Notes under the pieces: model-generated
The model's input: the letters and a program-made list of their open reading frames with translations, nothing else
The model's database searches: none
Told to the model about the DNA's origin: nothing
NCBI GenBank assembly: GCA_020636375.1
Contig: JACJXZ010000011.1
Span: 258,115 to 322,114, forward strand
DNA from: Lewinellaceae bacterium
GTDB taxonomy: Bacteria; Bacteroidota; Bacteroidia; Chitinophagales; Saprospiraceae
Length of the DNA stretch: 64,000 bases
Direction: 5' to 3'
Shown here: positions 1 through 63,712 of the stretch, one piece after another
Numbering within the stretch: the first letter of the stretch is position 1
How the letters are laid out: every line of letters begins with the position of its first letter
Position numbers and translations under genes: made by a program

Positions 1-2844
1 ACCGACCTGCACGTGATCGACAACGGAGGGCCCCTGCTGATCCCGGCAGGTGGATATCTGGTATTGGGCAACAATGGCGACCCGGCTGCCAACGGAGGCG
101 TTGCAGTGGATTACGCTTACAGCTCGGGCACTTTCAATCTGGCCAACGGTGCCGACGAAATTATCCTGACCGCTCCGGACCTTGTCGAAGTCGACCGGGT
201 AGAATGGGATGACGGCGCTACCTTCCCGGACCCCACTGGCGCGTCCATGGCCCTGCAACTGACCAACCTGGACAATAACGACGGCGCCAACTGGTGCGAA
301 GCCATGACCCCTTATGGTGCCGGGGACCTGGGGACGCCAGGCGCTGTCAACGACTGCGTACCGCCGCCCTCCTTCGACCTGCAGATTACCGAAATTTGGG
401 TCGGCCAGGATGGGGGCGATCTGACCGCCGACTGGTTCGAGATCACCAACTTTGGGCAAACAGCCTGGGTCAGTGGCATCGACGGCGGCCTGTACTTCGA
501 TGACGATTCCCAGGATCCCGCAGTAGCCGCTCCCATTAACGGCATTACCGATATCCAGCCTGGTGAAAGCGTTATCGTAGTGTCGGATATTGAAGCTGGC
601 GTGAACACTTTCTTCACCGTCTGGTCGCCCGATTATGACCTGGATGGCGTGGAAATCGGCTGGGCGGAGGGGCCCGGCCTGGGCCAGGGCGGCGATGCCG
701 TGACCCTCTTCGTCGGCGTACCAATGGTGACTAACATCGTAGACTACGAGGTCGTGCCGGCTTCTCCGTCCGGATTGTCTTACGATGTCGTTCTGGGTGC
801 CTTCAGCCAGGCGGGAACGGGAATCGTTCAAACCGGTACCAACATAGCTGTCGCCACTACCGCAACGGCGGGTACCAGTGGCCAGGAGCCCGCTATTGGC
901 TCCCCCGGCAACCAGGGGCCGCTGGTTGTACCGGAATACGACCTCCAGATTACCGAGATTTTTGCCGGCCAGGCCGGTGCCGACCTGACTGCCGACTGGT
1001 TCGAAATCCGTAACGTGGGCACAGCGCCCTGGGTGTCCGGCGTCGATCCCGACCTGTACTTTGACGATGATTCCGCCGATCCGGCATCTGCTGCCCTCGT
1101 TCAGGGCATCACCGAGATTTTGCCTGGCGCTTCCGCAATTGTGCTATCTACCGGCAATCCGGCCGATGTTACCACTTTCGTCGATGTGTGGAGTCCGGTA
1201 ATTGACCTGACGGGCGTGGAGATCGGTTATGCGGACGGTGCCGGCCTGAGCGGCGGCGGAGACGCGGTAACCCTTTGGGTGGGCGACCCCACAGCTTCCG
1301 ATCCTGTCGATATGGAAGCTTACCCTGACACGGCCCCCTTCGACGGGCAGTCGTATGACAGCGACCTGGGCGCGTTCAGCGTGGTAGGCAACGCCAACGG
1401 CGCAGTGCAGACTATAGCTTTGGGCGGCGACAACATGGACGTGCCCAACATCGGCTCGCCGGGCGACGGCCTGGCCGTCCCGCCTTCTACCGGATTGGCG
1501 ATTACGGAGATTTTTTCCGGCCAGGAAGGTGCCGACCTGACTGCCGACTGGTTTGAGATTCGCAATACGGGTACGCAGGCCTGGGTGTCGGGCGTTGATC
1601 CGGATTTATACTATGACGACGACTCTGCCGACCCGGCCAATGCTGTCCTGGTCCAGGGCATCGCCGAAATCCAGCCAGGCGCTTCAGCTATCGTCCTGAT
1701 CACCGCTGACCTGGCGGACATCACGGTTTTCACCGATGTGTGGAGCCCGGTGATCGACCTGACAGGCGTGGAGATTGGCTATGCCGATGGCGCCGGTTTG
1801 GGCGGCGGCGGCGATGCGGTGACGCTGTGGCTGGGCGACCCTGCCGCTTCCCTGCCCATCGCTATGGAAGCCTACCCCGACACGGCCCCCTTCGACGGGC
1901 AGTCGTATGACAGCGACCTGGGCGCGTTCAGCGTGGTAGGCAACGCCAACGGCGCCGTGCAGACCATCGCCCTGGGCGGCGACAATATGGACATTCCAAA
2001 CATCGGCTCTCCGGGCGACGGCCTGGCCGTCCCTCCGTCTACAGGGTTGGCGATCACCGAGATTTTCTCGGGTCAGGCCGGCGCCGACCTGACTGCCGAT
2101 TGGTTTGAGATTCGCAATACGGGCACACAGGCCTGGGTGTCGGGCGTCGATCCGGATTTGTACTACGACGACGACTCTGCCGACCCGGTCAATGCCGTCC
2201 TGGTCCAGGGCATTGCCGAGATTCAACCGGGGGCTTCCGCTATTGTGCTGATCACTGCCGACGTGGCTGACATTACCGCTTTCACCGATGTATGGAGCCC
2301 GGTGATCGACCTGGCGGGCGTGGAGATCGGCTACGCAGACGGTGCCGGGCTGGGCGGCGGCGGTGATGCGGTGACGCTGTGGCTGGATGACCCTGCCGCT
2401 TTTCTGCCTATCGCTATGGAAGCCTACCCCGACACGGCCCCCTTCGACGGGCAGTCGTATGACAGCGACCTGGGCGAATTCAGCATAGTGGATAACGCCA
2501 ATGGCGCAGTACAGACCGTCGCCCTGGGCGGCGACAATGGCGATGTGCCAAACATTGGCTCGCCGGGGGACCAGGGGCCGATCAGCAGCACAACTAACAG
2601 GGAGGCCGGTTCCATTAAGATTTTCCCGAACCCTAGCCGAGGGCTTATTTCGGTACAGCCTAAAGGTATAAGCGTGGTTGAATCTGTGGAAGTTTTTAGC
2701 CTGGAGGGCCAGTCGCTCCTTCGCTTGGCGGAAGTGCGTACTGGAGCTTTCACGCTTGACCTTTCCACTTTGCCTGCATCGGTTTACTATATACAAGTAC
2801 GCGGAGAACGTGCTGTGATCACAGAACGGATCGTCAAACAATAG
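1..2844 (+). CDS. Secreted repeat protein with four lamin-tail-domain (LTD)-like repeats and a T9SS (Por) C-terminal sorting domain. It is 5' partial, because the frame is open from base 1.
   Basis: Four ~180 aa repeats each contain the 'LQITEI..GQ.G.DLTADWFEI(R/T)N...VSG(I/V)D..LY(F/Y)DDDS' LTD-like motif. Repeats 3 and 4 are nearly identical at the nucleotide level (~540 bp units). The C-terminus 'IKIFPNPSRGLISVQP...VYYIQV' is typical of a Bacteroidetes T9SS CTD. There is no start codon at the window edge. Confidence 0.6.
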   Translation, partial: TDLHVIDNGGPLLIPAGGYLVLGNNGDPAANGGVAVDYAYSSGTFNLANGADEIILTAPDLVEVDRVEWDDGATFPDPTGASMALQLTNLDNNDGANWCEAMTPYGAGDLGTPGAVNDCVPPPSFDLQITEIWVGQDGGDLTADWFEITNFGQTAWVSGIDGGLYFDDDSQDPAVAAPINGITDIQPGESVIVVSDIEAGVNTFFTVWSPDYDLDGVEIGWAEGPGLGQGGDAVTLFVGVPMVTNIVDYEVVPASPSGLSYDVVLGAFSQAGTGIVQTGTNIAVATTATAGTSGQEPAIGSPGNQGPLVVPEYDLQITEIFAGQAGADLTADWFEIRNVGTAPWVSGVDPDLYFDDDSADPASAALVQGITEILPGASAIVLSTGNPADVTTFVDVWSPVIDLTGVEIGYADGAGLSGGGDAVTLWVGDPTASDPVDMEAYPDTAPFDGQSYDSDLGAFSVVGNANGAVQTIALGGDNMDVPNIGSPGDGLAVPPSTGLAITEIFSGQEGADLTADWFEIRNTGTQAWVSGVDPDLYYDDDSADPANAVLVQGIAEIQPGASAIVLITADLADITVFTDVWSPVIDLTGVEIGYADGAGLGGGGDAVTLWLGDPAASLPIAMEAYPDTAPFDGQSYDSDLGAFSVVGNANGAVQTIALGGDNMDIPNIGSPGDGLAVPPSTGLAITEIFSGQAGADLTADWFEIRNTGTQAWVSGVDPDLYYDDDSADPVNAVLVQGIAEIQPGASAIVLITADVADITAFTDVWSPVIDLAGVEIGYADGAGLGGGGDAVTLWLDDPAAFLPIAMEAYPDTAPFDGQSYDSDLGEFSIVDNANGAVQTVALGGDNGDVPNIGSPGDQGPISSTTNREAGSIKIFPNPSRGLISVQPKGISVVESVEVFSLEGQSLLRLAEVRTGAFTLDLSTLPASVYYIQVRGERAVITERIVKQ

Positions 2845-2998
2845 AGGTTGGTGGGTTAAATCCGTTGAATTTTCGGTGCAAATGGAGCGCGGACCCCGCA
2901 AGTCTGCGGGGCAGGTTCTCCAGGTCCGCCGGATCAATCAACGGATTTAACTCACTGCCTTTAAATTTTTGAAGTGCTTGATTTAAATGTGGAGCCAG

Positions 2999-4666
2999 TC
3001 ACTCCCATATTACCGCTTCCTGTGCCGCCAACCAGCCCTCAAAATGCCTCCCGTACCGTTGGGCCAGCTCGTTGCGTTTCACCTTCAGGGTGGGCGTCAG
3101 CAGGCCGTTTTCCACGCTCCACAGTTCGCGGGTGACGACCAGGGTGGCGATCTTTTCGTAATTAGCCAGTTTCCGGTTGACGGCATCCAGGGTTTCCCGC
3201 AGGCTTTGTTCGATGGCGGCCCGTTCTTTGGCGCGGCCCAATTCGGACAGGGCCACCAGGGCGATGGGTTGCGCCAGGCCCAGGCCGGCGATGCAGATCT
3301 GTTCGATATCGGGATTGCCGGCAAACGCCCATTCGATGGGCGCCGGCACGACGAACTTGCCCTTGGCGGTCTTGAAGGCTTCGGATACCCGGCCGGTCAG
3401 CCGCAGGAAGCCTTGCTCGTCGACCGTTCCGCTGTCGCCGGTGTGGAACCAGCCGTTGCGGAACACCTCGGCCGTCTTTTCCGGGTTCTTGTAGTAGCCG
3501 TCCATAAACCAGGGCCCGCGGGCGAGCACTTCGCCCGTTTCGGGGTCGGTTTTCACCTCGGCGCCCTGGAGGACGCGGCCGACGGTGCCGGTGGCGTCTT
3601 CCCATTCGCGGGTCATGGTAAAACCCCCGCAGGTCTCCGTCAGGCCATAGATTTCCTGGATGTTCATGCCCAGGCGGCGGTACCAGCCCTTCAGGCTGTC
3701 GGGCATAGGGGCGGCAGCGGTGATCAGTATCCGGGCCCGCCCCAGGCCGAGGGCGCGGCGGATTTTCTTTTTCACCAGGGTGGAAACGACCGGCAGGCGG
3801 AGCAGCAGGCGGAGGCGGGCCGGCGGCATGCGTTCCAGGATGGCCAGGTGGAACTTCGTCCAGATGCGGGGCACGGCGAAGAAGAAGGTGGGCCGGATTG
3901 CCTGGAGGTTTGGGGCGAAGGTGTCCAGGCTTTCTACGAAGGAGACCTGCGCCCGGTAGACAATGCTCAGCACTTCGGTCAGGGCCCGCTCGGCGATGTG
4001 GTTGAGCGGCAGGTAGGAGATCAGGCTGTTCTCGCCGGCGCGGAGCCGGAGCAGGTCCTCTTCCTTCTCCATGCGCACCAGCTCGGCCGGCTGCCGGTAG
4101 CGGAGCATCACCCCCTTGGGCGTGCCTGTGGTGCCGGAGGTGAAGATGATGGTAAAAAGGCTGTCCAGCCCGGGCACGGGGCTTCCGGCCAGGGGCTCGA
4201 AGCGGCTCAGGAAATCTTGCCATTGTTCCCCTTCCGTTACGCGGGAATTGCCTTCATAATGGGGAAAGGCGATGATGGGCATGTCCTTCGGCACCCCCTG
4301 TTTCATCTCCTCCCAGCCTTCCAGTTTGCCCACGAACAGCGCCTGGACATCTCCCAGCTCCAGCACTTCGCTGATCTGATCGGAGCGCAGGGTGGGGAAG
4401 AAGGGAACCGAGACGAAGCCGCCCATCATGATAGCCAGGTCGGCGATGATCCATTCCCGGCAGTTCTTGGAGACGATGCCGATGTGGGCGCCGGCGGGCA
4501 GCCCCAGGGAGCGCAGGCCGGCGGCCAGGCGGCGCGCCATTTGCCCGGTTTGGGCCCAGGTGTATTCCTCCCAGGTTTCGCCGAAGGGCTGGCGCAGGTA
4601 TACTTCATCGGGATGCTCCTTCTCCCACCGGTAGAAATAGCTGAGGAATGGTTTTAATGCTGCCAT
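2999..4666 (-). CDS. fadD: Long-chain fatty acid--CoA ligase (AMP-dependent synthetase/ligase).
   Basis: AMP-binding signature 'IIFTSGTTGTPKGVML', 'YGLTET' and a C-terminal 'TGD..' region. It is 555 aa with the ATG at 4666. Confidence 0.75.
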   Translation of the reverse strand: MAALKPFLSYFYRWEKEHPDEVYLRQPFGETWEEYTWAQTGQMARRLAAGLRSLGLPAGAHIGIVSKNCREWIIADLAIMMGGFVSVPFFPTLRSDQISEVLELGDVQALFVGKLEGWEEMKQGVPKDMPIIAFPHYEGNSRVTEGEQWQDFLSRFEPLAGSPVPGLDSLFTIIFTSGTTGTPKGVMLRYRQPAELVRMEKEEDLLRLRAGENSLISYLPLNHIAERALTEVLSIVYRAQVSFVESLDTFAPNLQAIRPTFFFAVPRIWTKFHLAILERMPPARLRLLLRLPVVSTLVKKKIRRALGLGRARILITAAAPMPDSLKGWYRRLGMNIQEIYGLTETCGGFTMTREWEDATGTVGRVLQGAEVKTDPETGEVLARGPWFMDGYYKNPEKTAEVFRNGWFHTGDSGTVDEQGFLRLTGRVSEAFKTAKGKFVVPAPIEWAFAGNPDIEQICIAGLGLAQPIALVALSELGRAKERAAIEQSLRETLDAVNRKLANYEKIATLVVTRELWSVENGLLTPTLKVKRNELAQRYGRHFEGWLAAQEAVIWE

Positions 4667-4858
4667 GGCGTTTGCGGTTCGTATTTTCAGCTATGAAAAT
4701 AATACTTCCGGGGCGGAATTCAACGGGTTAATAGGCAGAACCTGCCATTTGATCAAGTAAAGTTGACCCCTGCCGCTAAAAACATCACTTTTGGTGTAAC
4801 CTTTTGACAAACGGCCCCCTCTAATTATCCGAACCCGACATTGAAAGCGAACCATATC

Positions 4859-5902
4859 ATGAAAACCTTTTTTCAATCTCTCTTATTGACCATCAGTTTA
4901 ACGCCGGCTTTTGCTTCGGCCACCATGCAGACCCTCTTCAATGAACTGGAACGCGAAGGGGTCCTGAAAGTCGAACTGGAGCTGAACCTGGACACGCTGG
5001 AGCACAACGCCAGAACCTCGGAAGAGCAGCCTGCCATTTTCCGCTTTACGGACAGGCAGGGCGCCGTCCAGGAATGGAGCGCGGACGTCAACGTCCGCGG
5101 CCGTTTCCGCCGCCGCGTTTGCGCCTTCCCGCCGATCAAGATCGATTTTTCCAAAAATGACCTCCGGGCCCGGGGCCTGCTCCCCTTTGACGACATCAAG
5201 CTCGTTACCCACTGCCAGGAAGGCGAGGAAGGGCAGGAAGCGGTGCTTCGCGAATTCCTGGCTTACGAGCTCTACGGCAAGCTGAGCCCGATGAACTTCC
5301 GTGCCCAGTTGGTGGAGGTCACCTACATCGATGCCGAAAGCAATATCCGCTTCACCAAATACGGAATCCTCCTGGAGGATGCCGACGAGCTGGCCGCCCG
5401 CCTGAACAGCGAGGAATGTGAAGCCTGCTACGGCCTGGAGCCCTCCCAGGTCAACCCGGAAGCCTACCGCACCCACGCGATGTTCCAGTACATGATCGGC
5501 AACACCGACTGGTCGCTGGAGATGGCGCGCAACCTGAAGGTCATGAAGCCGCTGGACGGCGGCGCTTACTGGATTGCCCCTTACGATTTCGATTTTTCCG
5601 GGTTGGTGGGCGCCGGTTATGCCCTGCCCAATAACGACGTCGGGCAGAAGTCCGTCAGCCAGCGGGTATATATGGGCACGAAATCTACCCGCCCGCAACT
5701 GGAAGAATCCATCCGGCATTTTCAGTCCAAAAGGGAAGAAGTGATGGCCTGTGTCGAAGGCTTTACCCTGCTGAGCAGGAAGTCCCGCCGGGAAATAACC
5801 CGCTACCTGGAAAGCTTCTACGACAGCCTCGATGAGGAGGAGTTCCTGCAGGCGGCCGCCCTCGCTCCCGGGGACGCCTCTCCTGTAGCCAAAAGCAAAT
5901 AA
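4859..5902 (+). CDS. Hypothetical secreted protein with a signal peptide.
   Basis: The in-frame ATG at 4859 gives 'MKTFFQSLLLTISLTPAFASA', which is signal-peptide-like. No recognisable domain. Confidence 0.45.
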   Translation: MKTFFQSLLLTISLTPAFASATMQTLFNELEREGVLKVELELNLDTLEHNARTSEEQPAIFRFTDRQGAVQEWSADVNVRGRFRRRVCAFPPIKIDFSKNDLRARGLLPFDDIKLVTHCQEGEEGQEAVLREFLAYELYGKLSPMNFRAQLVEVTYIDAESNIRFTKYGILLEDADELAARLNSEECEACYGLEPSQVNPEAYRTHAMFQYMIGNTDWSLEMARNLKVMKPLDGGAYWIAPYDFDFSGLVGAGYALPNNDVGQKSVSQRVYMGTKSTRPQLEESIRHFQSKREEVMACVEGFTLLSRKSRREITRYLESFYDSLDEEEFLQAAALAPGDASPVAKSK

Positions 5903-5980
5903 GTTAAGCGTAACAACCCATAACAGATGCGCCTGCCACAATCCAACGTGGCGGGTGCTTTTTTTTGGGGGAGGCCCGTA

Positions 5981-6544
5981 TCACGAACCCGGAAACCCTT
6001 CCTGCTCAGTGACCCGCCTGGCCTGCAGCAGGTGCCGCTCCTCGTGGTTGGCCAGGATGGTAACCGCGTCGTGCAGGCTGTAGGTAATAAAAGAGGCGGC
6101 CGGCGAGGTGATGATTGTCCTTTTCAAATCCAGGTTTCCGAGGTTGCGCAGGTGGCGGATGAGTTCCTGGTTGTGCGCTGTAAACTGGCGGACGATGTCC
6201 GGCCCAACCTGGCTCTGGGCAGGGCGGAATACGTCCGGCGCCTTCATCTTTTGTTTGGGGACCGGCGTGATGGACCGCAGCAGCATGCTTCCCCAAAAAC
6301 CTGGGAAAAAGGGCACCTGCTCCCAGAAAGCCGCCTTTCTGGCGCCATTGGCCACCGCCTCCAGCTGCGGAAAGTAGGTGCGGTTGGAAACGATGAGGTG
6401 TTCCAGGCACTGGCCGGCGCTCCATTGCTTTTCGGAGGGTTTCCAGTTGAGCTGGCGGGCGGAGAGCCCGCCGAATGCCTGTTCGGCTTCCCGGCTGGCG
6501 TTGCCGATGCGGGTTATGATGGTATCAAGGTAGGAATTGGACAT
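5981..6544 (-). CDS. DinB family (DinB_2 / YfiT-like) putative metal-dependent hydrolase.
   Basis: 187 aa. The DinB_2-like pattern 'SARQLNWKPSEKQWSAGQCLEHL...' is present, with histidines spaced as in DinB/YfiT four-helix-bundle proteins. Confidence 0.55.
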   Translation of the reverse strand: MSNSYLDTIITRIGNASREAEQAFGGLSARQLNWKPSEKQWSAGQCLEHLIVSNRTYFPQLEAVANGARKAAFWEQVPFFPGFWGSMLLRSITPVPKQKMKAPDVFRPAQSQVGPDIVRQFTAHNQELIRHLRNLGNLDLKRTIITSPAASFITYSLHDAVTILANHEERHLLQARRVTEQEGFPGS

Positions 6545-6686
6545 TTGCGGCAGTTGTTTTTACCTGCCAAAATTACGCCGATTTTACCGCATTTTTTAAA
6601 AACCGAGTATCTTCGCCTGGCTTTTCCGGAAGACCTGACCAGTTCCGGCGGAGCATCCTAATCAAAAACTTGTCAAGCCTGTCCCT

Positions 6687-7418
6687 ATGAAACGAGAAAT
6701 CCACTCCTGGCACAGCCCGGCCCTGAACAAAACGATGGAAATAGCCGTCTACGGCCATTACGGCTTTGCCCTGCTGCTCTTCCCCACCGCTGCGGCGGAT
6801 TTTCTGGAATACGAGCGTTTTCACCTGATCGATTCCATCAGCCGCCAGATCGAAGAGGGCAAGGTAAAGGTTTTTTCCGTCAACAGCATCAACGCCGAAA
6901 GCTGGCTCAACCAGTACATGCAGCCCCGCCATAAGGCCATCCGCCACCAGCAGTTCAACGAATACATCTTCACCGAGGCTATCCCCTTCATCAAAAGCAT
7001 GACCAGCCAGGATACGCCCGTCATAACCAGCGGCGCTTCCTTCGGCGCCCTGCACGCCGCCAACCTGTTCTTCCGCCGCCCCGACCTCATCAACGGCGTC
7101 ATCGCCATGAGCGGCGACTACGACCTGAGCTCCTACACCAAAGGCTACCACGACCAGGACGTCTACTTCAACTCGCCCGTCCAGTACCTGCCCAACCTGC
7201 ATGACGATTACTTCCTGCCCCTCATCAAGCAGAGCGGCCACATCCACATCGTCACCGGTTCCGGCGACTGGGAACACCCCGACGCGTCGCGCCGCCTCTC
7301 CGCCATCCTCAGTGCCAGGGGCATCCCCCACGAACTGGACGTCTGGGGCTACGACATCCCGCACGACTGGCCTACGTGGCGCAAAATGTTGCCGCATTAT
7401 CTGGATACGCGGTTTTAG
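6687..7418 (+). CDS. Esterase family protein (putative esterase / S-formylglutathione hydrolase-like alpha/beta hydrolase).
   Basis: 'EIAVYGHYGFALLLFP' and 'SGASFGALHAANL' (a GxSxG-like nucleophile elbow) are typical of PF00756 esterases. Confidence 0.6.
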   Translation: MKREIHSWHSPALNKTMEIAVYGHYGFALLLFPTAAADFLEYERFHLIDSISRQIEEGKVKVFSVNSINAESWLNQYMQPRHKAIRHQQFNEYIFTEAIPFIKSMTSQDTPVITSGASFGALHAANLFFRRPDLINGVIAMSGDYDLSSYTKGYHDQDVYFNSPVQYLPNLHDDYFLPLIKQSGHIHIVTGSGDWEHPDASRRLSAILSARGIPHELDVWGYDIPHDWPTWRKMLPHYLDTRF

Positions 7419-7574
7419 GGGGGGAAGTATAACCGGGTACATGGGATAGGGTGATGTGGTGAGAGGGTGATGTGGTGAGACGTAATGCTGAACAAAACGG
7501 TTTTGGATGCAAGGAGCACTGGGCCCTTGGCACTGTATTGAAGCTTCGGCGTGAGACCTCGGTCAAACGCTGGA

Positions 7575-7735
7575 CAAATAGCTGTTGTCGGTTGCTAGTT
7601 GTCAGTTAGGGAACCCAATTGTTCCGGCGGCCCCAAGGCCAAACCGGCAACAACCTGTTGCCAATTATTGGCTGCCGACAGTTGGAAATAACAGACAACA
7701 GTCAACAATCAACGGCCAACTTGTCCAGTATTAGA
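7575..7735. repeat. Large imperfect inverted-repeat block immediately upstream of MITE copy 1. MITE-like or REP-like.
   Basis: 'ctggacaaatagctgttgtcggttgc...' pairs with '...caacggccaacttgtccag'. There is also an internal palindrome 'gccaattattggc'. Confidence 0.35.
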
Positions 7736-7751
7736 CGGATAGCCTGCCCTT

Positions 7752-7855
7752 GGGCTACCCGTCTAAGGCTGGACACTCCATACCTCCTGCACACGCTTGG
7801 CCTCGACTCCGCTCGGCTTTCCCTCTTCTACTGTCCAACCTTAGACGGGGAGCCT
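7752..7855. mobile_element. MITE-like ~100 bp element with ~24 bp terminal inverted repeats (copy 1 of 2).
   Basis: 'GGCTACCCGTCTAAGGCTGGACAC...GTCCAACCTTAGACGGGGAGCC'. It is ~95 percent identical to 28665-28766. Confidence 0.6.
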
Positions 7856-7948
7856 GCCCTTGTGTTAATGGCTTGAAAAACAGATTTTTATGATTTGAAT
7901 CAGGCACAGGGAAGAATGGCTCAAACCCTTCCCCGTGCCCCTGAGAGT

Positions 7949-9016
7949 TTAATTGCCGCCTATTGTTATCTTCTCACAAGCTTTATCGCTGTTTACGGGG
8001 TGTAATACAGTCCGCTTATACCCATCCGGGCAAGTCCAGCACTTCCCGGTCCCGATATCCAGGAAATAATCCCCTTCACATTTTTTAGCGTCTTCGTTCC
8101 TAATGGCTCGTTGATAGTCTGCATGTACCCTTTGGGAGCAGGCCTTTTCAGAGGTGACCGGATGGGCGGTGCGGCTAAAGCCAGAGGGGCAGCTGTAGCA
8201 ATTGCCATTGGGATCCCAAAATTGGCCGCCGGCACAATCGGTGCCCAAAAGGCCGCTGCCTCGCCCGTGATTGGTGGCGGAGGCGAAGCGTTCGAATGCG
8301 GCGCGCTCGCAGGCCTTGTCGCTCTTTACGGAAAAGACCGTCCGCTTATACCCACCCGGGCAAGTCCAGCAGGTACCCCCATCTACAGGATCATAGAATG
8401 TGCCGTCGCCACAGCCTACTTTATCGCCTTGTATGGCGGGCTTATAATCGCTGGTGACGCTTATGTTGATGCCATTGCTGCTACCCCCGTTGGGCAATAC
8501 CGCAACCAGTTCAAACTGCTGCTGGGCTTTGCCGTGAAAATCCCACTGCCATAGAATGGCCCTATTCTCTTTGTCTGCATTTTTGATGGAAAGATACTTG
8601 CCGCTGTGCCGGGCTTTGATGTAGTAGGCATTGCCTTCCGCCGGTTCGAGGGCAAACTGCTGCTGGGCTTTTCCGTGGAAATCCCACTGCCAAACCGTCT
8701 CGCCATTTTCCTGGCCGGCATTTTTAATGCTGACGTACTTGCCGCTGTGCATCGCCTTAATGTAGTAATAGCCACCACCGGCACTCTTGAACTCAAACTG
8801 TTGCTGGGCTTTGCCGTGAAAATCCCATTGCCAGAGAATGATGCCATTTTCCTGGCCAGCATCCTTGACACTAATGTACTTCCCACTGTGGCGGGCCTTC
8901 AGGAAATAGGTGCCCTCTGCCACCGGGGAAGGGCCTGATGTTCGCCATGCGCTGCAAACAAAGATGACAACAGCGAGGAGTGCAGCACTAAAGCTGATTG
9001 AATACATCGTCTTCAT
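7949..9016 (-). CDS. Secreted ricin-B-type (beta-trefoil, QxW) lectin domain protein with three C-terminal Cys-rich repeats.
   Basis: Signal peptide present. There are three ~50 aa repeats 'HSGKY(I/L)S(I/V)K.AGQENG...WQWDFHGKAQQQFE' (QxW motif). These are followed by three repeats of 'C(W/Y)(T/S)CP.G(Y/F)(K/S)RT...S(D/E)KAC'. Confidence 0.55.
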   Translation of the reverse strand: MKTMYSISFSAALLAVVIFVCSAWRTSGPSPVAEGTYFLKARHSGKYISVKDAGQENGIILWQWDFHGKAQQQFEFKSAGGGYYYIKAMHSGKYVSIKNAGQENGETVWQWDFHGKAQQQFALEPAEGNAYYIKARHSGKYLSIKNADKENRAILWQWDFHGKAQQQFELVAVLPNGGSSNGINISVTSDYKPAIQGDKVGCGDGTFYDPVDGGTCWTCPGGYKRTVFSVKSDKACERAAFERFASATNHGRGSGLLGTDCAGGQFWDPNGNCYSCPSGFSRTAHPVTSEKACSQRVHADYQRAIRNEDAKKCEGDYFLDIGTGKCWTCPDGYKRTVLHPVNSDKACEKITIGGN

Positions 9017-55580: not shown

Positions 55581-55946
55581 TTCACCGGACGCTTACAATT
55601 CTCCAAACTATGGAGCCCATCAGGCCCGAAAAAAATAAAGAACGGCGACGACGTTTAATGCGCGGCGCCGAACGGCATATCTATGAAGCAAATTACCGCC
55701 GCGCATTATAGCGATTTCAACACGCCCCGAAAACCGGATTTAAACTCACGATTACAGGAGCTTTTTTCGGTGGCCTTGATCATTGGTTGCCCGGTAAAGT
55801 ATTGCCAGGTTTCTATCATTTTTGACATTTTCCGTCCGATTCTTTTATCAGGTAATTATTGTAAAGCAATTTTGAGGCCGCCTTTTATTTTTTGGCGCGG
55901 CCAACCTGCTTAACTTAATGGTGTTGACGCATTGTTAGCGGCAAAT

Positions 55947-57347
55947 TTAGCTAGTAACATCTAACCTCTTCTCTAAAATTTTCTCCCTTTGCCAATCAAT
56001 AATTGTTTTTTCCAAGGACTCCGTTATTTGTGTGAACGGTCTATCTTTATTTTCCCAATCAGTCGAGGTTACTGGTTTTCCATCTTTAGGCAATGCCTGT
56101 AAATAACTGAAATGTGTTTTTTGCCAAAGACATTCCCTAATAATTATTGGAATCACTTTCACTTTTTCATCATCATGAAGTTTTAATGCTGTCTTCATTT
56201 CAGTCTCATAACAATATTCTGATGCTATGAAATCTGTACTTATTAGCAACAAGATAATGTCTGCTTTTTTTAGAGCATTTTTTATTTGTTCATCCCAATT
56301 TTTTCCAGCTTCTATCAAACCATCGTACCAAATATTGTTTATAAGTTTGGCAATTTGAAGAACTTTTAAGTTTTTAATCAAAGTAATACAAATATCTTCA
56401 TCATTTCGAGAATAAGCAATAAAGAAATTTAAAGGTTCTCTCAATGAATTTACATAGTTTTCAATTTTCTCTTGGAGTGAAAATGCATCCTTGTGATTTC
56501 TTTCCTTCAAAATTAAACTGACTATATCTAAAGCCAGCTTTAAATTGCCTTTAGAGAATTCCCTTTTAGCTTGTTCTAGTTTTTCAATTATGTTACATTC
56601 TTCAATACAAATATCAATTTTCTGTTGAATAAACTCTCTATGAGCTTCTGAAGTTTTGCTTAAATTTTCCTTAGCTTTTTCAAAGTTACTCAAGGAAATT
56701 TCCCAAAGTTTTTCACTATAAGCTCTCATTCCTTGGCTCAAATATTTGTTGAATTGCACAAATTTATCTCTTTCATCAAGATGTTTTTGTAATTGTTTTT
56801 CAATACTAGCATCCTTTTTTATTTCGCTCGCTTTTATAAGGCATTCTATTGCTTCATTTAAAAAACCTCTCTTATAAGAATCCTTTGCAATTTCTTTAAA
56901 TTCAACAAGCTGAGCCTCTATATCGTATTCAAGTGAAACAATTAAATCTCCAGTTTCATCAGTTTCGAATTCATAATTACCTAATCCTTCTTTGACTATT
57001 TCTTCTCCTATCTCAGAACCAAAAGGAATTCTAATCACATATGGACGATTTTCATAGTAAAAACCCCTTCCATCGCAAGGATAGCAGAATAGATTAATCT
57101 TCTTCACCCCCTTACATCGAGAACATTTCTCAAGACTACGCCTTTCCCCAAAAAGAATATTTTTTCGAGTTTTGTATATTGTTCCTTGACCATAACACTC
57201 CGGACAAGAAATAACCCTTTTTCCATTTCCTTGGCATTCTTTGCACTTAATTACCCTTGATAATTCAACTCTTATTTCAAATCCTCGATAGGCATTTTTT
57301 TCAGTCGTATTAATCGTTAGATAATTATTCTTTTTTTGAATACTCAT
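55947..57347 (-). CDS. TIR-domain protein with an N-terminal DnaJ-type (CxxCxGxG)x4 zinc finger and a central helical region. Candidate standalone anti-phage/NADase effector in an AT-rich island.
   Basis: 466 aa. N-terminal 'CKECQGNG..CPECYGQG...CSRCKGVK...CYPCDGRG'. C-terminal TIR features 'NFFIAYSRNDEDI...IWYDGLIEAGKNWDEQI...ADIILLLISTDFIASEYCYETE...KVIPIIIREC'. Gene GC is about 33 percent against about 60 percent for the window. It sits directly between IS66/IS91 remnants. Confidence 0.7.
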   Translation of the reverse strand: MSIQKKNNYLTINTTEKNAYRGFEIRVELSRVIKCKECQGNGKRVISCPECYGQGTIYKTRKNILFGERRSLEKCSRCKGVKKINLFCYPCDGRGFYYENRPYVIRIPFGSEIGEEIVKEGLGNYEFETDETGDLIVSLEYDIEAQLVEFKEIAKDSYKRGFLNEAIECLIKASEIKKDASIEKQLQKHLDERDKFVQFNKYLSQGMRAYSEKLWEISLSNFEKAKENLSKTSEAHREFIQQKIDICIEECNIIEKLEQAKREFSKGNLKLALDIVSLILKERNHKDAFSLQEKIENYVNSLREPLNFFIAYSRNDEDICITLIKNLKVLQIAKLINNIWYDGLIEAGKNWDEQIKNALKKADIILLLISTDFIASEYCYETEMKTALKLHDDEKVKVIPIIIRECLWQKTHFSYLQALPKDGKPVTSTDWENKDRPFTQITESLEKTIIDWQREKILEKRLDVTS

Positions 57348-57412
57348 ATATCTGAATGGCTATCAATTTTAGAATTCATTGTTTTAATAACATACCGAAT
57401 TAGAGATAATAT

Positions 57413-58957
57413 TGCCGCTAACTTTAAGCATTGTATCTGCCGGGACCGCGCAGCGGTGCTGTCAGATACAATGCAGTTGGACGGAACCGCCAAACGCAGC
57501 TGCCTCTATGGGCATTGTATCGGCCTATCCAGGGGCTCTCTTACGGCTCTTTAGCCATCCGTTTTTCTCTGCCGGCCCCCTGTAAGCCCCTCCGGCCGGC
57601 AACCGCAGCCTAAAATAGCCGTTTCTTCCTTCTTTTTCAAGCCAAACATCCGCTTCAAGGCATAAAAATACAGCCTCAGGGCTGAACTGTAGCTGCCTGA
57701 GCCGCAGGCAATGGGGTGGACAACCCTTTAGCCATGAGGCAACAAGGCGGCCCCCGGCCAGCCGGTATCCAGAGAACCGTCAACATGCGGCCCTTGCCGC
57801 ACACCGGGCACACTTCCCAATCAATGCCGGCGGCCTGCCGGTAGCGCTCCCGCCAGGACAGAACCGGAAGCTGGGGCGGCGGTTTTACCCCTAAAGCTTG
57901 CCGGCAAAGTGTCAATGCCCGGCGGCGCAGCCGGTTGGATAAAATACCGTAGTAGCGGATCTTGCAGAACCGGGTGCCGGCAGTACATGCTGTAAAACCG
58001 CCGGATAAACTCCTCATGCTCCAGGCACATCACTTTCTGCTTATTGCCATCGGCGTAATCCCGCCAGCGGAAGCAAACCGTATCCTTGTCCATGGACACA
58101 ATGCGGTGGTTGCTTACCGCCACCCGGTGGGTATAGCGCCCAAGGTAGGTCAGCAATTGCTCCGGCCCGGCAAAGGGCGGCTTGGCATAGGCTACCCATT
58201 CTTGAGCCATCAGCTTGTTTAATAAGCCGTCAAAAGCCTGCTTGCTGCGCAAACGGCCGCACAGCCCTGCCAGGCGAAGCCGGCCAGCTCGGTAGTGCCG
58301 GCGCAAAGCGCTGACAAACTTTCCCTTGAACAGGGCCGACAGAGCCTGCACCGGCACAAAGAACTCCTCGCGGGCTGATACCCATTTGCCGCCCCTCAAG
58401 CCTCCACCAGGAACTATGCAGTGGAGGTGAGGGTGGTAATGCAGGTTCTGACCCCAACTATGCAAGATGGCTGCCATGCCCGGCCGGGCGCCCAGGTAAT
58501 GCCTGTCGGCACACAGCTTCGACAAGGCCGCCCACGCTTCTTGGAATAAGGTTCCATACAACAGCCGTTCATTGTAGCGCACTAAATCGTGAACCTCTGC
58601 CGGAAGCGTAAAAACGATAACCTGTCCCGTACACAAAGTGTCGGGATGAAAATATCCCACTGGCAAAAGCTCTGCTTGCCGCGCTTCCAGCCAGGCTTCC
58701 CGAGCCAGGCTCTGGCATTTAGGACAATGGCGGTTGCGGCAGCTATTATAACTGATGCGAATGTGCCCGCATTCATCGCATGCGTCGATAACTTGTCCCG
58801 TACACGCAGTGTCGGGATGGCCGCCCAATGCCGCCGTACGGCATTGCTCTATAGCTCGCATGGCCTTATGCTGGGCTTTGCTCAGCTTATGCTTTGAACG
58901 GTAAGCTGTGCCGCCGGCTCGAAAAACATCGGCTACCTCATATTTAGGCCGGGCCAT
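57413..58957 (-). mobile_element. IS91 family element, copy 2: a terminal hairpin region plus a Y2/HUH transposase gene. The gene is frameshifted near 57960-58017 and carries two in-frame 30-33 bp palindrome insertions.
   Basis: 'HPHLHCIVPGGGL', 'CRNRHCPKCQ', 'YLGRYTHRVA'. The C-terminus continues in ORF 57676-58017 in another frame. The insertions at 58618-58647 and 58790-58819 split 'GGH|..|DACDECGH' and the HUH motif 'YFH|..|VFTLP'. Confidence 0.7.
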
Positions 58958-58974
58958 GAATGGGTCACCAACGG

Positions 58975-59240
58975 GCCAGCAAATCCGGCAGCCCTTTCAT
59001 CCGGCTGTTTTGCACATGCACATAACGCGCAGTGGTGCTCACGTTGGAATGGCCCAGCAGGGCCTTCACCGTCAGCGTATCCACCCCGTTTTCCAATAAG
59101 TGCGTGGCAAAACTATGGCGCAGCACATGCACCCCTGCCTGCTTGCGAAGGCCAATGCGCTGGCATGCCTGCTTAAATACGGCTTGTACCGTGCGGATGC
59201 TGATATGCCGCCCGGGACATCTTGCCCGGCCGGACGACAG
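58975..59240 (-). pseudogene. Tyrosine recombinase (phage-integrase family) C-terminal fragment immediately upstream of the IS91 transposase gene.
   Basis: Minus-strand frame '...VLRHSFATHLLENGVDTLTVKALLGHSNVSTTARYVHV...' has the canonical R..H..Y catalytic tail. Confidence 0.6.
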
Positions 59241-59994
59241 TTTCGAGCAGGCCCTGCTCCATCACCAGCTTGCCCAGCCGTTTGAGGTTGTAGGACAGCA
59301 CTCCCAAAGCGACATATTTCTTGAACCCGTCCAGGCCTTTATCCGGCACCCGGTTGGCGCCGCTATGCTCCAATTCATTGATATTTGATTCTACAGCGCT
59401 GTGTTTTTTGCGCAATGCCACGAACGTTTTGGCGCTTTCTTCAGCTTCCTGTTGCGGCGTTTTTTTCCCTTTTTTGGGCATCACTACGTGCTCAAAGTCC
59501 TCTTGCAAGGCCTTCTTGGCCAAAAAAAAAAAAAAACCTCTGTCAAAACTAATACTATTCAGCGCATAACCTTCGCTGAAGCGCTCCTTGACACGCTTGG
59601 CCAGCGCAATAGGCTGGGCTTTGTCTCCCTGCCCCACCAATACTTCATGGTCAACAATGAATTGAAATTGGTCCGTTGTTATCAGGGTATTGTGGCCCAG
59701 CTCCACTTTCTTATTATGTTTCCCTTTTTGTATCCACTCCACATGAGGCTCAAAAATAGAAAACACTTTTTCTTCATGAGGGATTATTTCTCCTTTAATA
59801 ATACGGCGCTCTACCAAACCGATATGCTTTTCCAGCATCTCATGGTAATAGGATAAAGCTTTTAATAATGCGCCAAGCTGAATATCTGCCAGCGCTAAGG
59901 GCAACAATTCCTTATAGCTTTGCTCTACGCGCTGGCTCAATTCCCGGCTGCGCTGCAAATATTTTTCAGCCGCTTTTTTCAACCGCTCCTTATA
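59173..59994 (-). pseudogene. C-terminal half of an IS1182/IS5-like DDE transposase gene that is interrupted by the IS4-like element at 59995-61635.
   Basis: '...SAVESNINELEHSGANRVPDKGLDGFKKYVALGVLSYNLKRLGKL'. Reading through the 8 bp TSD joins it in frame to ORF 61623-62408 ('...KGKGYKERLKKAAEKYLQ'). Confidence 0.5.
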
Positions 59995-61635
59995 TCCCTA
60001 GACTTTGGACGTGCGGCGTTGGGGGAAATTTTTTTTCCATCCTTTCGCCGCCCGCCCTGTTAAAAAAAGAGCCGTTCAGGCTCGCTTTTTCTTTGCCTTT
60101 TTACCCTTCCACACGACTTTATGGCGTTCTCTCTTGTCCTGAATGTCTCCTTCTTTGCGCCCTCGGCTTTTTATTTGCAGTTTTGGGAGGAAGGGCTCCT
60201 GCTCAAAACTCAAAATAATAGATTCCATTTGCCGCTGCACCTCGGAGGGAGATACTGGCAAGCCATATTCAACGCGCTTTTTGTAACGCTTGTCGTACTT
60301 CTGCCATTTGTGCACTTTCGCCTGCGCTTCGTCTTTGGCTACCCAAAGTAGCCAGTAGGCCAGGCTTACTATCTCCATCCAATTATCCAAGTGCTCCACG
60401 TCCGGCGTCTGGAAGCTATCCATCAGCAAGTTTTGTTTGCCAAACCGGAGGAAGTGCTCTATATCAAAGCGCTGGCGATAGGCCCAGTATATTTCTTCGA
60501 GGGTTAATTCTCCTACCTGCTGCCCCATACGCCCAGCCACATGCGCCTCTTGAATATAGGCTCCTTTGTCTGGGCATCCATCAAACGCACGCTTACCAGC
60601 CGAAAGGGCTTATCTTTCATATTCATACCTCGTTTGGTACGGATCATCATATTGTCCCAGGCTTGCACTTGTACCAGCACCCGCCGCCCATTAGACAAAG
60701 CCACTCCAAAGGTGCCCTCCTCATCCGGCGGCAATTCCACTGCTCAGCCTCTGAGAGCTTGTACTTTTCTCCATACACTGCATTAGCTCCCCGCTGATCG
60801 GAGTTGTTAGCCCTTCTTTGCTCCTGCTCCCCGATACTGAGGGCTTTCCATACCGCCCGGTTGTTGGTTAAGCGGATGGTGTTCACTAAATGGGGCTGCT
60901 CATACAGCGGGGCGATATATTCGGGCGAACCGTAGTAACGATCTGATGCATTGACGGTCAAGTGTGTGCCAAAAGGCAATTCCTTATTGTCCACTAAATC
61001 CTTGACTTGCCGAGCAGCGAATGTATGCCCTTGGCTGGCTATGCCCTGCCGGCGGATACTCAGCGGAAGGTTCCATGGCGCCTCAGCTACCCCATATAAG
61101 GACCGCCGCGCTGCCAAGCCAACCACTGATATGCTATAGCCAATATCCACTGGTACCGGTTTCCCTTTACCCGGTTATTAGCCACATACACGTGGGAACG
61201 ATCAGGAAGCGTTGGCGAATGATACCGTATCAATGAACTGCCGTCTGTGTTGAGCAAGTAAAACTTTTCAAACGGTTTAGCCATATAACCGCTTTTCAAC
61301 GATAAGAGCTTTTGCTCCAACTCTAAATGGGCACGCTGCTTTTCCTCTTCTGGATAATGGGCGCCTTCATGCAGGCAGTTTATTGCATCCGCTATGCTAC
61401 TGTATTGATAATGATAGCAGCGGCTTAGGCTAACTGCCGTAACTGACCGGGCAGATTGCTGGCTAGCTAGGCCCATCACTAAGTTGGCCAAAGCTTTGCT
61501 TTTTCCAACCTCCAGTTGTAATATTGAGTGGCAGAACGACTCGGTGGCTTTGTTTTTTCGCACAATCCAAAGTTCCGATGTTGTTCTGTCTTTTCAAAAT
61601 CTACCCCTAGCACGTCCAAAGTCTAGTTATATCCC
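59995..61635 (-). mobile_element. IS4-family insertion sequence with 17 bp perfect IRs and an 8 bp target-site duplication (TTATATCC). The transposase is fragmented by frameshifts across ORFs 60076-60540, 60647-61150 and 61087-61563.
   Basis: IR 'CTAGACTTTGGACGTGC' at 59995-60011 is inverted at 61619-61635. The flanks read 'ttatatcc|IS|ttatatcc'. The tnp C-terminus 'RQRFDIEHFLRFGKQNL' is a DDE_Tnp_1 motif. Confidence 0.65.
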
Positions 61636-62408
61636 TTCCCTTTCTTTTGATGGATATTAGCGGTGCGCCGGTAAACCCGCTTAATAATTTTATGCCAATG
61701 CTTGTGCTTGCGCCAGCCGGGCAGGGTAGTGTGCTTTAATATTAATCCTATCGTGTCCAGGCATTTGCGGTTGCAATCCCATAATAAATTAATATCAGTT
61801 GGAAAATGTATAGTGCTTTCCACCGCGTAAGTGTCGGCCTTCAAATTTAATTCAATATTTTCTTCGCTTTCGTTTTTTTTTAATTGGTGGCCCGCTTTAA
61901 CCACCACTTCGCTGATCTCCTTTAAAGTTTTCTCGTCAAGCAATGCGATATTATCTTTCAGCGTTTGCAGCTCGTAATATTTGCCTTCGCCAAATACTTG
62001 CCGGGTATGTACCCCCAGGATGCCGCGCACCACTTGGTGGTGGTTGGCCAGGTCGTAAACGGTGTCATAGTCCGCATCCAGGTTTAGCCGCATTGTGCCC
62101 AGCACCAATATCTCCCACAAGCTCATGCCTAAACGGCCCGTTGCTTTTTTACCCCCCAAAACCTTCTTTTCAAGAATCTCGAAAACCACCTCATTTAGAT
62201 AGGGAGTGACAAAAATGTATTGCAAGCCTGCCAGCAGTTGGGGAAGCTCATGTCGGCTCTTGCCGTCTATTTTTACATCCGGGATCAGTTGGGCGTCCAG
62301 TTCATTTTGCTGTTCGAAGCGCTTTCTCATCAGGGGAAAATTTGAATGTTTGGCGAATAACAAATTAGTTAAATCTTTCATGTGATTGAAAAACAATGCT
62401 TTACGCAT
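61636..62408 (-). pseudogene. N-terminal half of the same IS1182/IS5-like transposase gene.
   Basis: ORF 61623-62408 is 261 aa. Its stop codon is created by the inserted IS terminus (…GYN* via 'ctag'). Confidence 0.45.
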
Positions 62409-62437
62409 TCAACTCTCCCGAATATACGAATAATTCA

Positions 62438-62635
62438 TCAACTTTTATAGCACTGGATGTCGATTTTTTTGAATTTATTTCGCTGAAAATCAGTTAGTTG
62501 TGCATGGGGCTTTCGTTTTCTGCCAGACACGATGTAGGTTTTGACCGTCGGCTCGCTGTAGCCCCTGCGCTCCATGTAGCGCAACATTTTAGCTCTTAAT
62601 GGTTTCATGGTAAAGCGTTTTGGTGAAATAATCAT
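62438..62635 (-). pseudogene. Tyrosine recombinase N-terminal SAM-like domain fragment.
   Basis: 'RAKMLRYMERRGYSEPTVKTYI' matches the integrase N-terminal core-binding motif. Confidence 0.35.
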
Positions 62636-62718
62636 CTCTCGCTTTACCAGTTAAGGCTTTTGGAGGACAAAAGCTACCGCCGGAACGGCGGTTTAGTTCA
62701 ACGGTGAAGCTACCTGCC

Positions 62719-63420
62719 GTGCGACACTTAGGAGTATGGCCAGGTAGCTAATGTGTGTGCCCGGCATGGGCATCCGGTCCCTGTAAAGATAGGGAATAAA
62801 ACTAGAGGGTGAAAATCCCTTACAGGCAAGTTGCCGAAGCCTGTTAGCAAGCCGCAAGGGCGCTCGGAGTGATCCGGGGTCTGAAGGAAGCGGGACTGCA
62901 AAAGCTGGTACCGACGAACAGGAATCGCATAAGAGGCTGGATTAGGAGCGTAAGGCAGCATCCCGTCAGGCGTGACGGGATCAAAGCGCGTAGGCAGCCA
63001 TCCTAATTGAGTAGATGCGGCGGCGATCAGCGGAAAGCGGATGTCCTTACCCGGGGAGATCTCCACGAGGATTCATTCCTGGAATGGAGAAGTCAGCCGA
63101 AGCCATAGTAGCGGAGCCAAACCGTGTTCTAATGACTAGCCATCCCGACACTTTGTGTACGGGACAAGTTGTTGCTGGCAGCGGAGCGTGAGAGGGTAGC
63201 CGTGAAGGGCTGAACGTCGAACAGCGGACGATCCGCGAAACATGGAACTTGTCTATCATGGGTGACCGATTCCCTACGGCAAACCATCCGTTTCGATGGA
63301 AAAGATGCAAGGTGCAACTGGTGAAAAGAGCGGTTGTACTGTTTGACGAACCGCCGTATACGTGACCCGTACGTACGGTGGTGTGAGGGCTCTGGAACAG
63401 TGACGGACACCTTTGCCCAT
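62719..63420 (+). ncRNA. Candidate ORF-less group II intron (class C-like) or related structured RNA, about 700 nt.
   Basis: It begins GUGCG at 62719. Near the 3' end (63351-63384) there is a domain-V-like hairpin 'CCGCCGUAUACG-UGACC-CGU[AC]GUACGGUGG', with the lower stem CCGUAU/GUACGG and the 2 nt AC bulge identical to the canonical DV. A triad-position 'CGC' and a GAAAGCGG-type motif lie upstream. No IEP ORF is present. The region also contains a copy of the 30 bp palindrome (63141-63170). Confidence 0.3.
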
Positions 63421-63493
63421 TGGGTAGGTTTAAATGTCAGTCGCTGTTCCTTGCCACTCGATTGGCGGCATCCTCATATCTTGATATTCCTTT

Positions 63494-63712
63494 CTATGCA
63501 GCTAAATCGGTAGGCCTGATATTTAAATCTTCCAATATTGAGCTTAACTCTTTCAGAAATTTCCCTCTTCTATATTGGTATTGGATCAACATGATATCTT
63601 CTTCATCTCCTTTTTGCTTATGGAGATCTATCATCTCGTCGACTGACTTTATTTGCTCCAGTAAATCAGCTACTTTGCTTATTCTTTCATCCATTATTTC
63701 TAAATCCTTCAT
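63494..63712 (-). CDS. Hypothetical small helical protein (AT-rich).
   Basis: 72 aa ORF in a ~35 percent GC region. Confidence 0.25.
   Translation of the reverse strand: MKDLEIMDERISKVADLLEQIKSVDEMIDLHKQKGDEEDIMLIQYQYRRGKFLKELSSILEDLNIRPTDLAA

Follow-up and report, generated by a model that had tools for sequence, protein, structure and literature searches.

The 64,000-nt stretch of Lewinellaceae bacterium DNA analysed here (contig JACJXZ010000011.1, referred to below as the window, with coordinates counted along its forward strand) contains near its right-hand end a structured region which an initial annotation had proposed to be a class C group II intron without an open reading frame (ORF), extending from 62719 to 63420. 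This raises the question of whether the region indeed represents such a ribozyme, where exactly it starts and ends, and how an intron that encodes no protein could be mobile. Our analysis indicates that positions 62755-63462 (+ strand) very likely constitute a bacterial group IIC intron of 708 nt that is complete and non-autonomous (ORF-less), this being a new example of an already known type of selfish RNA element in an uncommon, protein-less form. The general description of the region as structured, GC-balanced and non-coding was borne out: its G+C content is 0.54-0.57 (as compared to 0.35-0.39 downstream), a 744-nt fold is more stable than shuffled sequences (z = -5.9), and only short ORFs occur, for which no homologues were found, the antisense ORFs of 112 aa and 93 aa not being on record as called genes.

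The Rfam comparison by which the initial annotation had suggested verifying its proposal was performed at two levels of stringency. A scan of the whole window returned a single above-threshold match, being group-II-D1D4-3 (RF02001) at 62863-63045 on the + strand (106.8 bits, E = 7e-21, gathering cutoff 32), and since this E value applies to the whole window, chance is excluded. A permissive scan of 62400-63700 additionally retrieved group-II-D1D4-1 (RF01998) at 63054-63210 (34.2 bits, cutoff 35) and Intron_gpII (RF00029), representing domains V and VI, at 63349-63462 (37 bits, cutoff 40). These three models are collinear on the + strand, and the element is therefore a group II intron on that strand. 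The possibility of a different structured RNA or ribozyme, which had been left open at the outset, draws on the sub-threshold Intron_gpII score and on nothing else, and is next to negligible when set against the collinear order of three group II models, the E value obtained for D1D4-3, the covariation with bona fide introns encoding a reverse transcriptase (RT), and the exact intron-type ends described below.

Determination of these ends made use of two sets of sequences. For the first set, GTDB species genomes were scanned with the domain V pattern CCGCCGTAT-N11-ACGTACGGTGG, which yielded at least 120 loci, mostly from Bacteroidota, and 26 further complete copies were extracted by BLAST and motif from the matches listed (27 copies including that of the window); unless indicated otherwise, the counts of relatives given below likewise refer to the matches listed. 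All 26 relatives start with GUGUGCC or GUGCGCC, corresponding to position 62755 in the window, and share no sequence upstream of that start, while the closing helix of domain I begins at intron position 6 in every copy aligned. Where copies lie in tandem (loci L114 and L047), the junction between them reads CUCGAU|GUGUGCC. The second set was obtained by looking up in public assemblies a 72-aa ORF located just downstream of the intron (63494-63712, - strand), and consists of six intron-less contigs (L001-L006) that match the window with 100% identity when read leftwards from 64000 as far as 63462, past which point they bear no relation to it. The 3' end of the intron is therefore 63462 (...CUCGAU), and domain VI runs up to this point, some 40 nt further than the end at 63420 that had been assumed. 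The junction rebuilt by removal of the intron, ...aatgT|TGGCGGCATCC, agrees with ...gccT|TGGCGGCATCC of the intron-less contigs, including the T at 62754, which consequently belongs to the exon. GUGUGCC and CUCGAU are the ends of the 708-nt intron, both known to the single nucleotide, and they agree with the 5' GUGYG and 3' AY termini of group II introns. The closest match to the intron flanks is found in assembly GCA_020636095.1.

The start previously assigned to a GUGCG sequence at 62719 was reconsidered. GUGCG is present at this position and fits the GUGYG consensus, and a mobile unit spanning 62719-63462 would have CUGCC (62714-62718) as its intron-binding site 1 (IBS1), which is perfectly complementary to GGCAG (62954-62958) in the loop region of exon-binding site 1 (EBS1) and in this respect beats the 4-bp GCAU/AUGU pairing proposed below. 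Such a start is nevertheless very improbable, considering that the relatives carry nothing before GUGUGCC and always close domain I from position 6, that the 36 nt from 62719 to 62754 belong to a 9-bp target hairpin, to which they contribute loop and 3' arm in pairing with exon sequence, GUGCG itself being located in the loop, that T62754 is also present in the intron-less contigs, and that excision at 62719 rebuilds no attC-like site (see below) whereas excision at 62755 does. From the starts of the relatives at 62755 together with the upstream hairpin over GUGCG it therefore follows that the true start is the GUGUG at 62755 and that the intron comprises 62755-63462. A second occurrence of the motif complementary to CUGCC, GGCAGC, is found at 62993-62998; the CUGCC/GGCAG match is probably due to chance and could alternatively mark a cryptic 5' splice site.

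Collinear Rfam models and covariation agree in the presence of a six-domain (D1-D6) architecture, and all six domains could be drawn. An alignment of D1-D3 from 22 copies resulted in 72 consensus pairs, in which 97% of the cells are paired (versus 34-45% with slid partners); compensatory changes occur in 46 of them, and the observed covariation score was reached by none of 500 shuffles. The window intron forms 61 of the 72 pairs, with all misses falling within two length-variable hairpins, and it retains 127 of the 136 near-invariant D1-D3 columns, one of the differences being a compensated pair. Judged by this conservation the intron core looks functional and not decayed, and the earlier suggestion of a truncated copy does not hold. 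Domain I (62760-63055) is closed by pairing of 62760-62764 with 63051-63055 and holds the D1D4-3 match, and is followed by the domain II hairpin (63056-63094; helix 18 of the alignment fold), J2/3, and domain III (63101-63211), over which the D1D4-1 match extends up to 63210. Domain IV (63216-63347), with a basal stem of 63216-63223 and 63340-63347, has no ORF and no similarity to RTs. Domain V (63350-63382) was found exactly as first described, with a CCGUAU/GUACGG lower helix including G-U wobbles, a CGC triad (63352-63354) that contains a central G-U pair, an AC bulge (63371-63372), and a short upper helix of 3 bp capped by a 5-nt loop. Domain VI (63385-63459) rests on a 3-bp GAG/CUC basal helix with a bulged A63456, presumed to be the branch point; the same base and bulged A recur in 88 of 94 distinct relatives. 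At 75 nt this domain is long relative to the median of 42 nt in relatives, and its architecture is common to the window and a copy from a Saprospiraceae metagenome-assembled genome (MAG; L086).

The class of the intron is IIC, because of its CGC triad, short domain V, 3-bp domain VI base with bulged A, insertion after a stem-loop, and the RTs of its relatives. Relatives that contain an ORF measure 1.85-2.0 kb and encode proteins of 420-475 aa, matching the GsI-IIC RT (6AR1; E = 2.6e-96), the Eubacterium rectale IIC RT (7UIM) and TIGR04416, and the window ribozyme aligns over D1-D3 and D5-D6 with copies encoding these class C RTs. In its GUGUGCC/CUCGAU ends, CGC triad and short domain V it resembles O.i.I1 of Oceanobacillus iheyensis, GsI-IIC and the E. 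rectale IIC intron, where O.i.I1 likewise starts with GUGUGCCCGGCAUGGG and carries a CGC triad. It differs from these three introns in having no ORF in domain IV, in a target with a 24-nt loop and no U-tract, in its 75-nt domain VI, and in an extra hairpin in the EBS1 stem-loop. The 3-bp domain VI basal helix with bulged A is shared with most IIC introns, in which such a helix is usual (PMC4748821). Also in common are a short IBS1, here a candidate of 4 nt, and a position only a few nt beyond a DNA stem-loop, insertion of this kind being a hallmark of the class (PMC4424553, PMC12584367), whose targets are situated just downstream of a stem-loop and have no IBS2 (PMC4424553, PMC2504315).

The target stem-loop in the 5' exon (62708-62749, + strand) consists of the arms AGCUACCUG (62708-62716) and CAGGUAGCU (62741-62749) around the 24-nt loop that includes GUGCG. 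Its 9-bp stem ends 5 nt before the intron, and stems of at least 9 bp so placed were encountered at 0.7% of 1000 random positions. A Rho-independent terminator as target was ruled out for the window by the 24-nt loop and the lack of a U-tract, and does hold for relatives L022, L074 and L102. For recognition of the exons we infer a 4-bp pairing between a putative EBS1, GCAU (62958-62961), and IBS1, AUGU (62751-62754, the last 4 nt of the 5' exon), the former being located in the loop that carries ACAU in relatives (alignment columns 312-319). Of the 27 copies, 19 have a 5' exon with UGU at its end, among them every non-tandem Bacteroidota copy, and the 3' exon starts with U; in the window, U63463 is the proposed IBS3. 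The target consensus of IIC-attC introns is TTGT/T.

As had been claimed, no RT or maturase is encoded at the locus, nor was any detected in the 64-kb window by tblastn with 13 related intron-encoded proteins (IEPs), and the distance from domain III to domain V is just 135 nt; the intron combines the absence of an ORF with a ribozyme core that looks intact. Several observations weigh against a functional, complete intron. The Intron_gpII score remains 3 bits under the Rfam gathering cutoff, and the nearest relative is 32% distant over D1-D3. The EBS1 hairpin is unlike that of the relatives in that an 8-bp hairpin is inserted, and the proposed GCAU/AUGU pairing has only 4 bp, one of which is G-U. 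No gene for a helper protein was found in the window, this being the sole part of the genome searched. Transcription of the intron is conjectural, since it is antisense to all its neighbours and no sigma-70 promoter was found on the + strand, in a scan that did not include Bacteroidota promoters; a terminator scan gave nothing useful. No second exact copy that would speak for recent mobility was found either: none is present in the 64-kb window, and a metagenome scan with the 5' 21-mer returned solely an unrelated truncated IIC fragment (L130), so that near-identical copies at other sites, as known for TeI3, are absent from the window and the metagenome scan.

These observations bear on the possibility that the intron is a dead relic, i.e. 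a formerly mobile element which has lost its ORF, its splicing and its movement. The single copy, the lack of a nearby RT, the antisense orientation to local transcription with no promoter found, the altered EBS1 hairpin, and surroundings in which decayed mobile elements abound (transposase fragments as well as a split integrase) would all suit a relic. We regard this as unlikely, since the 127 of 136 near-invariant D1-D3 positions have been retained with one difference being a compensated pair, the triad and bulge of domain V, the branch A of domain VI and both splice-site motifs are intact, and the intron retains a domain IV hairpin whose conservation in ORF-less copies from many genera, covariation of the stems included, points to selection acting on the RNA.

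This hairpin is shared with relatives that equally lack an ORF. ORF-less bacterial group II introns have been called rare (PMC4424553, PMC3245105). Within a length-unbiased sample of 44 domain V matches with at least 2 kb of upstream sequence, a full RT ORF was present in 18, a partial RT in six and no ORF in 13 (approximately 30% of the sampled copies), with eight being unclear. The domain IV hairpin of the window (63312-63339, + strand; loop GGUGAAAAGAGC at 63320-63331) is specific to ORF-less copies and follows the loop pattern G(G/A)UG(A/U/C)AAAGAGC, 21-22 nt before domain V. Ten of the 12 complete ORF-less copies (that of the window included) have this motif, as opposed to none of 15 ORF-containing ones, and when all loci are considered, 18 of 21 motif matches lie at most 80 nt upstream of domain V (17 at 21-22 nt and one at 47 nt). 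The 9-bp stem shows compensatory changes in eight pairs and is 92% paired versus 36-48% with slid partners, and the invariance of the loop in this set arises partly by construction because the sequences were chosen by the motif. Derivation of the loop from codons of an IEP (GEK = GGUGAAAAG) was rejected, the motif in ORFs being neither conserved nor accompanied by the flanking arms. Independent, recurrent deletions of the ORF were also judged an unlikely source of the hairpin, because ORF-containing copies do not have it at that position.

D1-D3 trees show ORF-less copies intermixed with ORF-containing ones (distances of 7% for L065a/L065b, 9% for L113/L107 and 12% for L078/L062), and ORF-less and ORF-containing pairs co-occur in genomes of relatives (L065, L114). 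Such a pattern would fit a non-autonomous lineage that has persisted while its catalytic domains track those of its partners. A tentative extension, towards which we lean somewhat less than halfway, is that these introns form an undescribed, long-lived non-autonomous IIC family in Bacteroidota, comparable to short interspersed nuclear elements (SINEs), which would possess its own domain IV module, track co-resident RT 'drivers' and home in antisense orientation into attC-like sites, these sites bounding defence or toxin-antitoxin modules and Xer-integrase/IS91 units.

Tandem arrangements were encountered at two of the loci. Locus L114 (Chitinophagales MAG, 5091-7966) contains head-to-tail an ORF-less, a degenerate-ORF and an ORF-less IIC copy, and L047 (Prolixibacteraceae MAG, 2491-6378) a head-to-tail pair of ORF-containing IIC copies; these arrays suggest that the domain VI hairpin of one intron may serve as target for the next. 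ORF-less IIC copies also occur on plasmids of Tenacibaculum, Chryseobacterium and Persicobacter, with no feature annotated under the matches (CP116298.1, 107702-108255, and a second copy, L132 7075-7669; NZ_CP041688.1, 3439-3994; CP012862.1, 191588-192151). On the two plasmids inspected, CP116298.1 and NZ_CP041688.1, the introns are antisense to, and immediately downstream of, - strand genes (a restriction endonuclease, DUF4339 and others).

Two ORF-less systems were available for comparison. TeI3 introns of Thermosynechococcus elongatus are ORF-less and mobilised in trans by 'driver' IEPs (PMC2882425). Like them, the window intron is a compact ORF-less ribozyme with an intact core and a remodelled domain IV, as is common to ORF-less copies, and by analogy it presumably relies on the protein of a related intron. 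TeI3 introns differ in being IIB1/chloroplast-like and in stemming from one deletion in one genome (17 copies), whereas the window intron is IIC, its ORF-less form occurs together with the same domain IV hairpin in many genera of Bacteroidota, and the ORF-less copies are interleaved with ORF-containing introns in D1-D3 trees. C.te.I1 of Clostridium tetani is an ORF-less intron in a genome without an IEP (PMC4424553, PMC4024640), and it resembles the window intron in this lack of an ORF and in a possible upstream alternative GUGYG. It is of IIB type, however, resides inside a gene and undergoes alternative splicing, and nothing at the present locus hints at a coding role of the exons.

The position of the intron was further examined with respect to its flanks. 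When the intron is removed in silico, a site is restored on the - strand with the sequence CGCCAAC-att-AGCTACCTG-[loop]-CAGGTAGCT-tcacc-GTTGAAC, which has an attC-like architecture (RYYYAAC, a 9-12-bp stem, a loop of approximately 20 nt, and GTTRRRY). One outer 7-mer is the GTTCAAC box at 62696-62702 (+ strand, equivalent to GTTGAAC on the - strand), and the other, GT|TGGCG, is split by the intron, which thus sits inside a 7-bp GTTRRRY-like box. Only two such sites exist in the 64-kb window, at 57482-57416 (- strand) and at 62696-62754 together with 63463-63469, and they flank on both sides a unit composed of a Xer-like integrase and an IS91-family Y2 transposase; shuffled sequence yields 0.5 sites of this architecture per strand. 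The window and contig L001 (10251-10253) part exactly at G|TT of GTTGGCG (62753-62754/63463 on the window side), and the intron lies 1 nt 3' of this divergence point. G|TT is the crossover point expected in integron-type recombination. A module formed by a DUF6932 ORF and the 72-aa ORF is common to the window and the six intron-less contigs, all of which part from the window at this G|TT, the left partner being in each case another integrase-Y2 unit. The gene modules each begin with TTRRRY, complementary to their own RYYYAAC box in the fashion of integron cassettes: TTGGCGGCA and TGCCGCCAA border the DUF6932/72-aa pair, and GTTAGCGGCAAT and ATTGCCGCTAAC a gene for a TIR-domain protein. Locus L032 follows the same module logic, its intron being located within GCCTA|AC (GT|TAGGC on the other strand).

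An alternative explanation for the target hairpin is that it is no integron attC and that an IS91-family element either terminates in it (ori/ter end) or uses it for insertion, in which case the intron lineage would parasitise the ends of rolling-circle transposons. GAAC and CAAG are IS91 target tetranucleotides, and it is directly behind GAAC that the integrase-Y2 unit starts in three genera, namely those of the window, L001 and L032. The only two sites in the window bracket this very unit, integrase or Y2 genes are found near relatives in 10 loci, and the integrase is Xer-like, scoring 144 bits with TIGR02249 against an integron-integrase cutoff of 265. As opposed to this, the TTRRRY starts of the modules complement their own RYYYAAC boxes as in integron cassettes, the window and L001 diverge exactly at the integron crossover point G|TT, and introns of relatives reside in canonical boxes such as the GCCTA|AC of L032, for which reasons the IS91 explanation is considered possible but rather doubtful. 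No IntI was found in the window, and residence of the intron in an IntI-bearing integron is thus not apparent; because of this, and because the sites could belong to the IS91 unit, they are termed attC-like here.

The attC-like reading of the site invites comparison with IIC-attC introns such as S.ma.I2 of Serratia marcescens, which run antisense to genes and are intercalated between the gene and the stem-loop site belonging to it (PMC3001079, PMC8876359). The window intron is similarly antisense to the adjacent genes, parts a gene from a putative stem-loop recombination site, and is inserted within a 7-mer of the GTTRRRY/RYYYAAC type (PMC3001079, PMC8876359). S.ma.I2 differs in encoding its own protein and in residing in class 1 integrons of Proteobacteria with IntI, whereas the window intron has no ORF, no IntI was found in the window, and the recombinase is Xer-like and accompanied by an IS91 transposase. 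The IEPs of IIC-attC introns fall within one monophyletic clade.

Combining these elements, the following course of events can be proposed. Transcription of the + strand would yield an RNA that folds as a ribozyme and is assisted in trans by an RT/maturase encoded at another place in the genome by a related IIC intron with an ORF, both the splicing activity and this trans-acting helper protein being inferred. Excision would occur by branching at A63456 or by hydrolysis, and the intron would then insert itself by reverse splicing into single-stranded DNA in which a stem-loop precedes ...UGU|U, the target being recognised through the short EBS1-IBS1 pairing (GCAU/AUGU), a single EBS3-IBS3 base pair and the hairpin shape. 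Class C intron proteins consist of RT and X domains and have no endonuclease domain, for which reason cDNA synthesis may be primed at the replication fork. Insertion at the present locus has split the recombination-site-like element between the DUF6932/72-aa pair and the Xer-like integrase and IS91 unit. The trans-mobilisation which the initial annotation had envisaged would be consistent with this scheme.

Being a ribozyme and mobile element, the intron escapes gene callers and lacks annotation, as do its relatives on Bacteroidota plasmids, and by splitting a recombination-site-like element it could freeze the neighbouring gene module in place. If the ORF-less copies indeed form a family, they would represent a bacterial parasite-of-a-parasite partnership of retroelements and a tractable model thereof, they would provide natural compact IIC ribozymes of about 570-710 nt, they would tie IIC introns to attC-like recombination sites outside Proteobacteria, and ORF-less bacterial group II introns would be far commoner than the literature states.

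All genes neighbouring the intron are on the - strand. Downstream, the AT-rich sequence with small reverse-strand genes noted earlier is accounted for by the 72-aa ORF and the DUF6932 ORF. Upstream, the Xer-like integrase is split into an N-terminal part of 65 aa (62635-62438), not on record elsewhere as a called gene, and a C-terminal part of approximately 90 aa (59255-58977), with about 3.2 kb of transposase debris in between (an ISNCY-like 261-aa ORF at 61623-62408 and DDE_Tnp_1 fragments at 59173-61563). Next follow the IS91-family Y2 transposase (58957-57821) and a TIR-domain protein of 466 aa (55947-57347) that includes a DnaJ-type zinc-finger region, all on the - strand. The TIR gene is enclosed by a perfect 12-nt inverted repeat, GTTAGCGGCAAT/ATTGCCGCTAAC (55935-57430), and the unit has the appearance of a mobile cassette carrying a defence gene. 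Among Flavobacteriia and Bacteroidia, several genera have a conserved 5' flank of about 100 nt before the intron (..TTGATTTAGCACT..CGCC.ATT..TTATACA..TGT|; seen for example at L107 3940-4039, L065, L055, L062 and L078), which matched no Rfam family and probably constitutes a conserved family of recombination sites. Finally, where the integrase-Y2 unit begins, the GTTGAAC box is directly followed by a GC-rich hairpin, ACCGCCG-TTC-CGGCGGT (62676-62692, - strand), and at L032 its small counterpart after GTTGAAC is AGCTCC-TGCC-GGAGCT.

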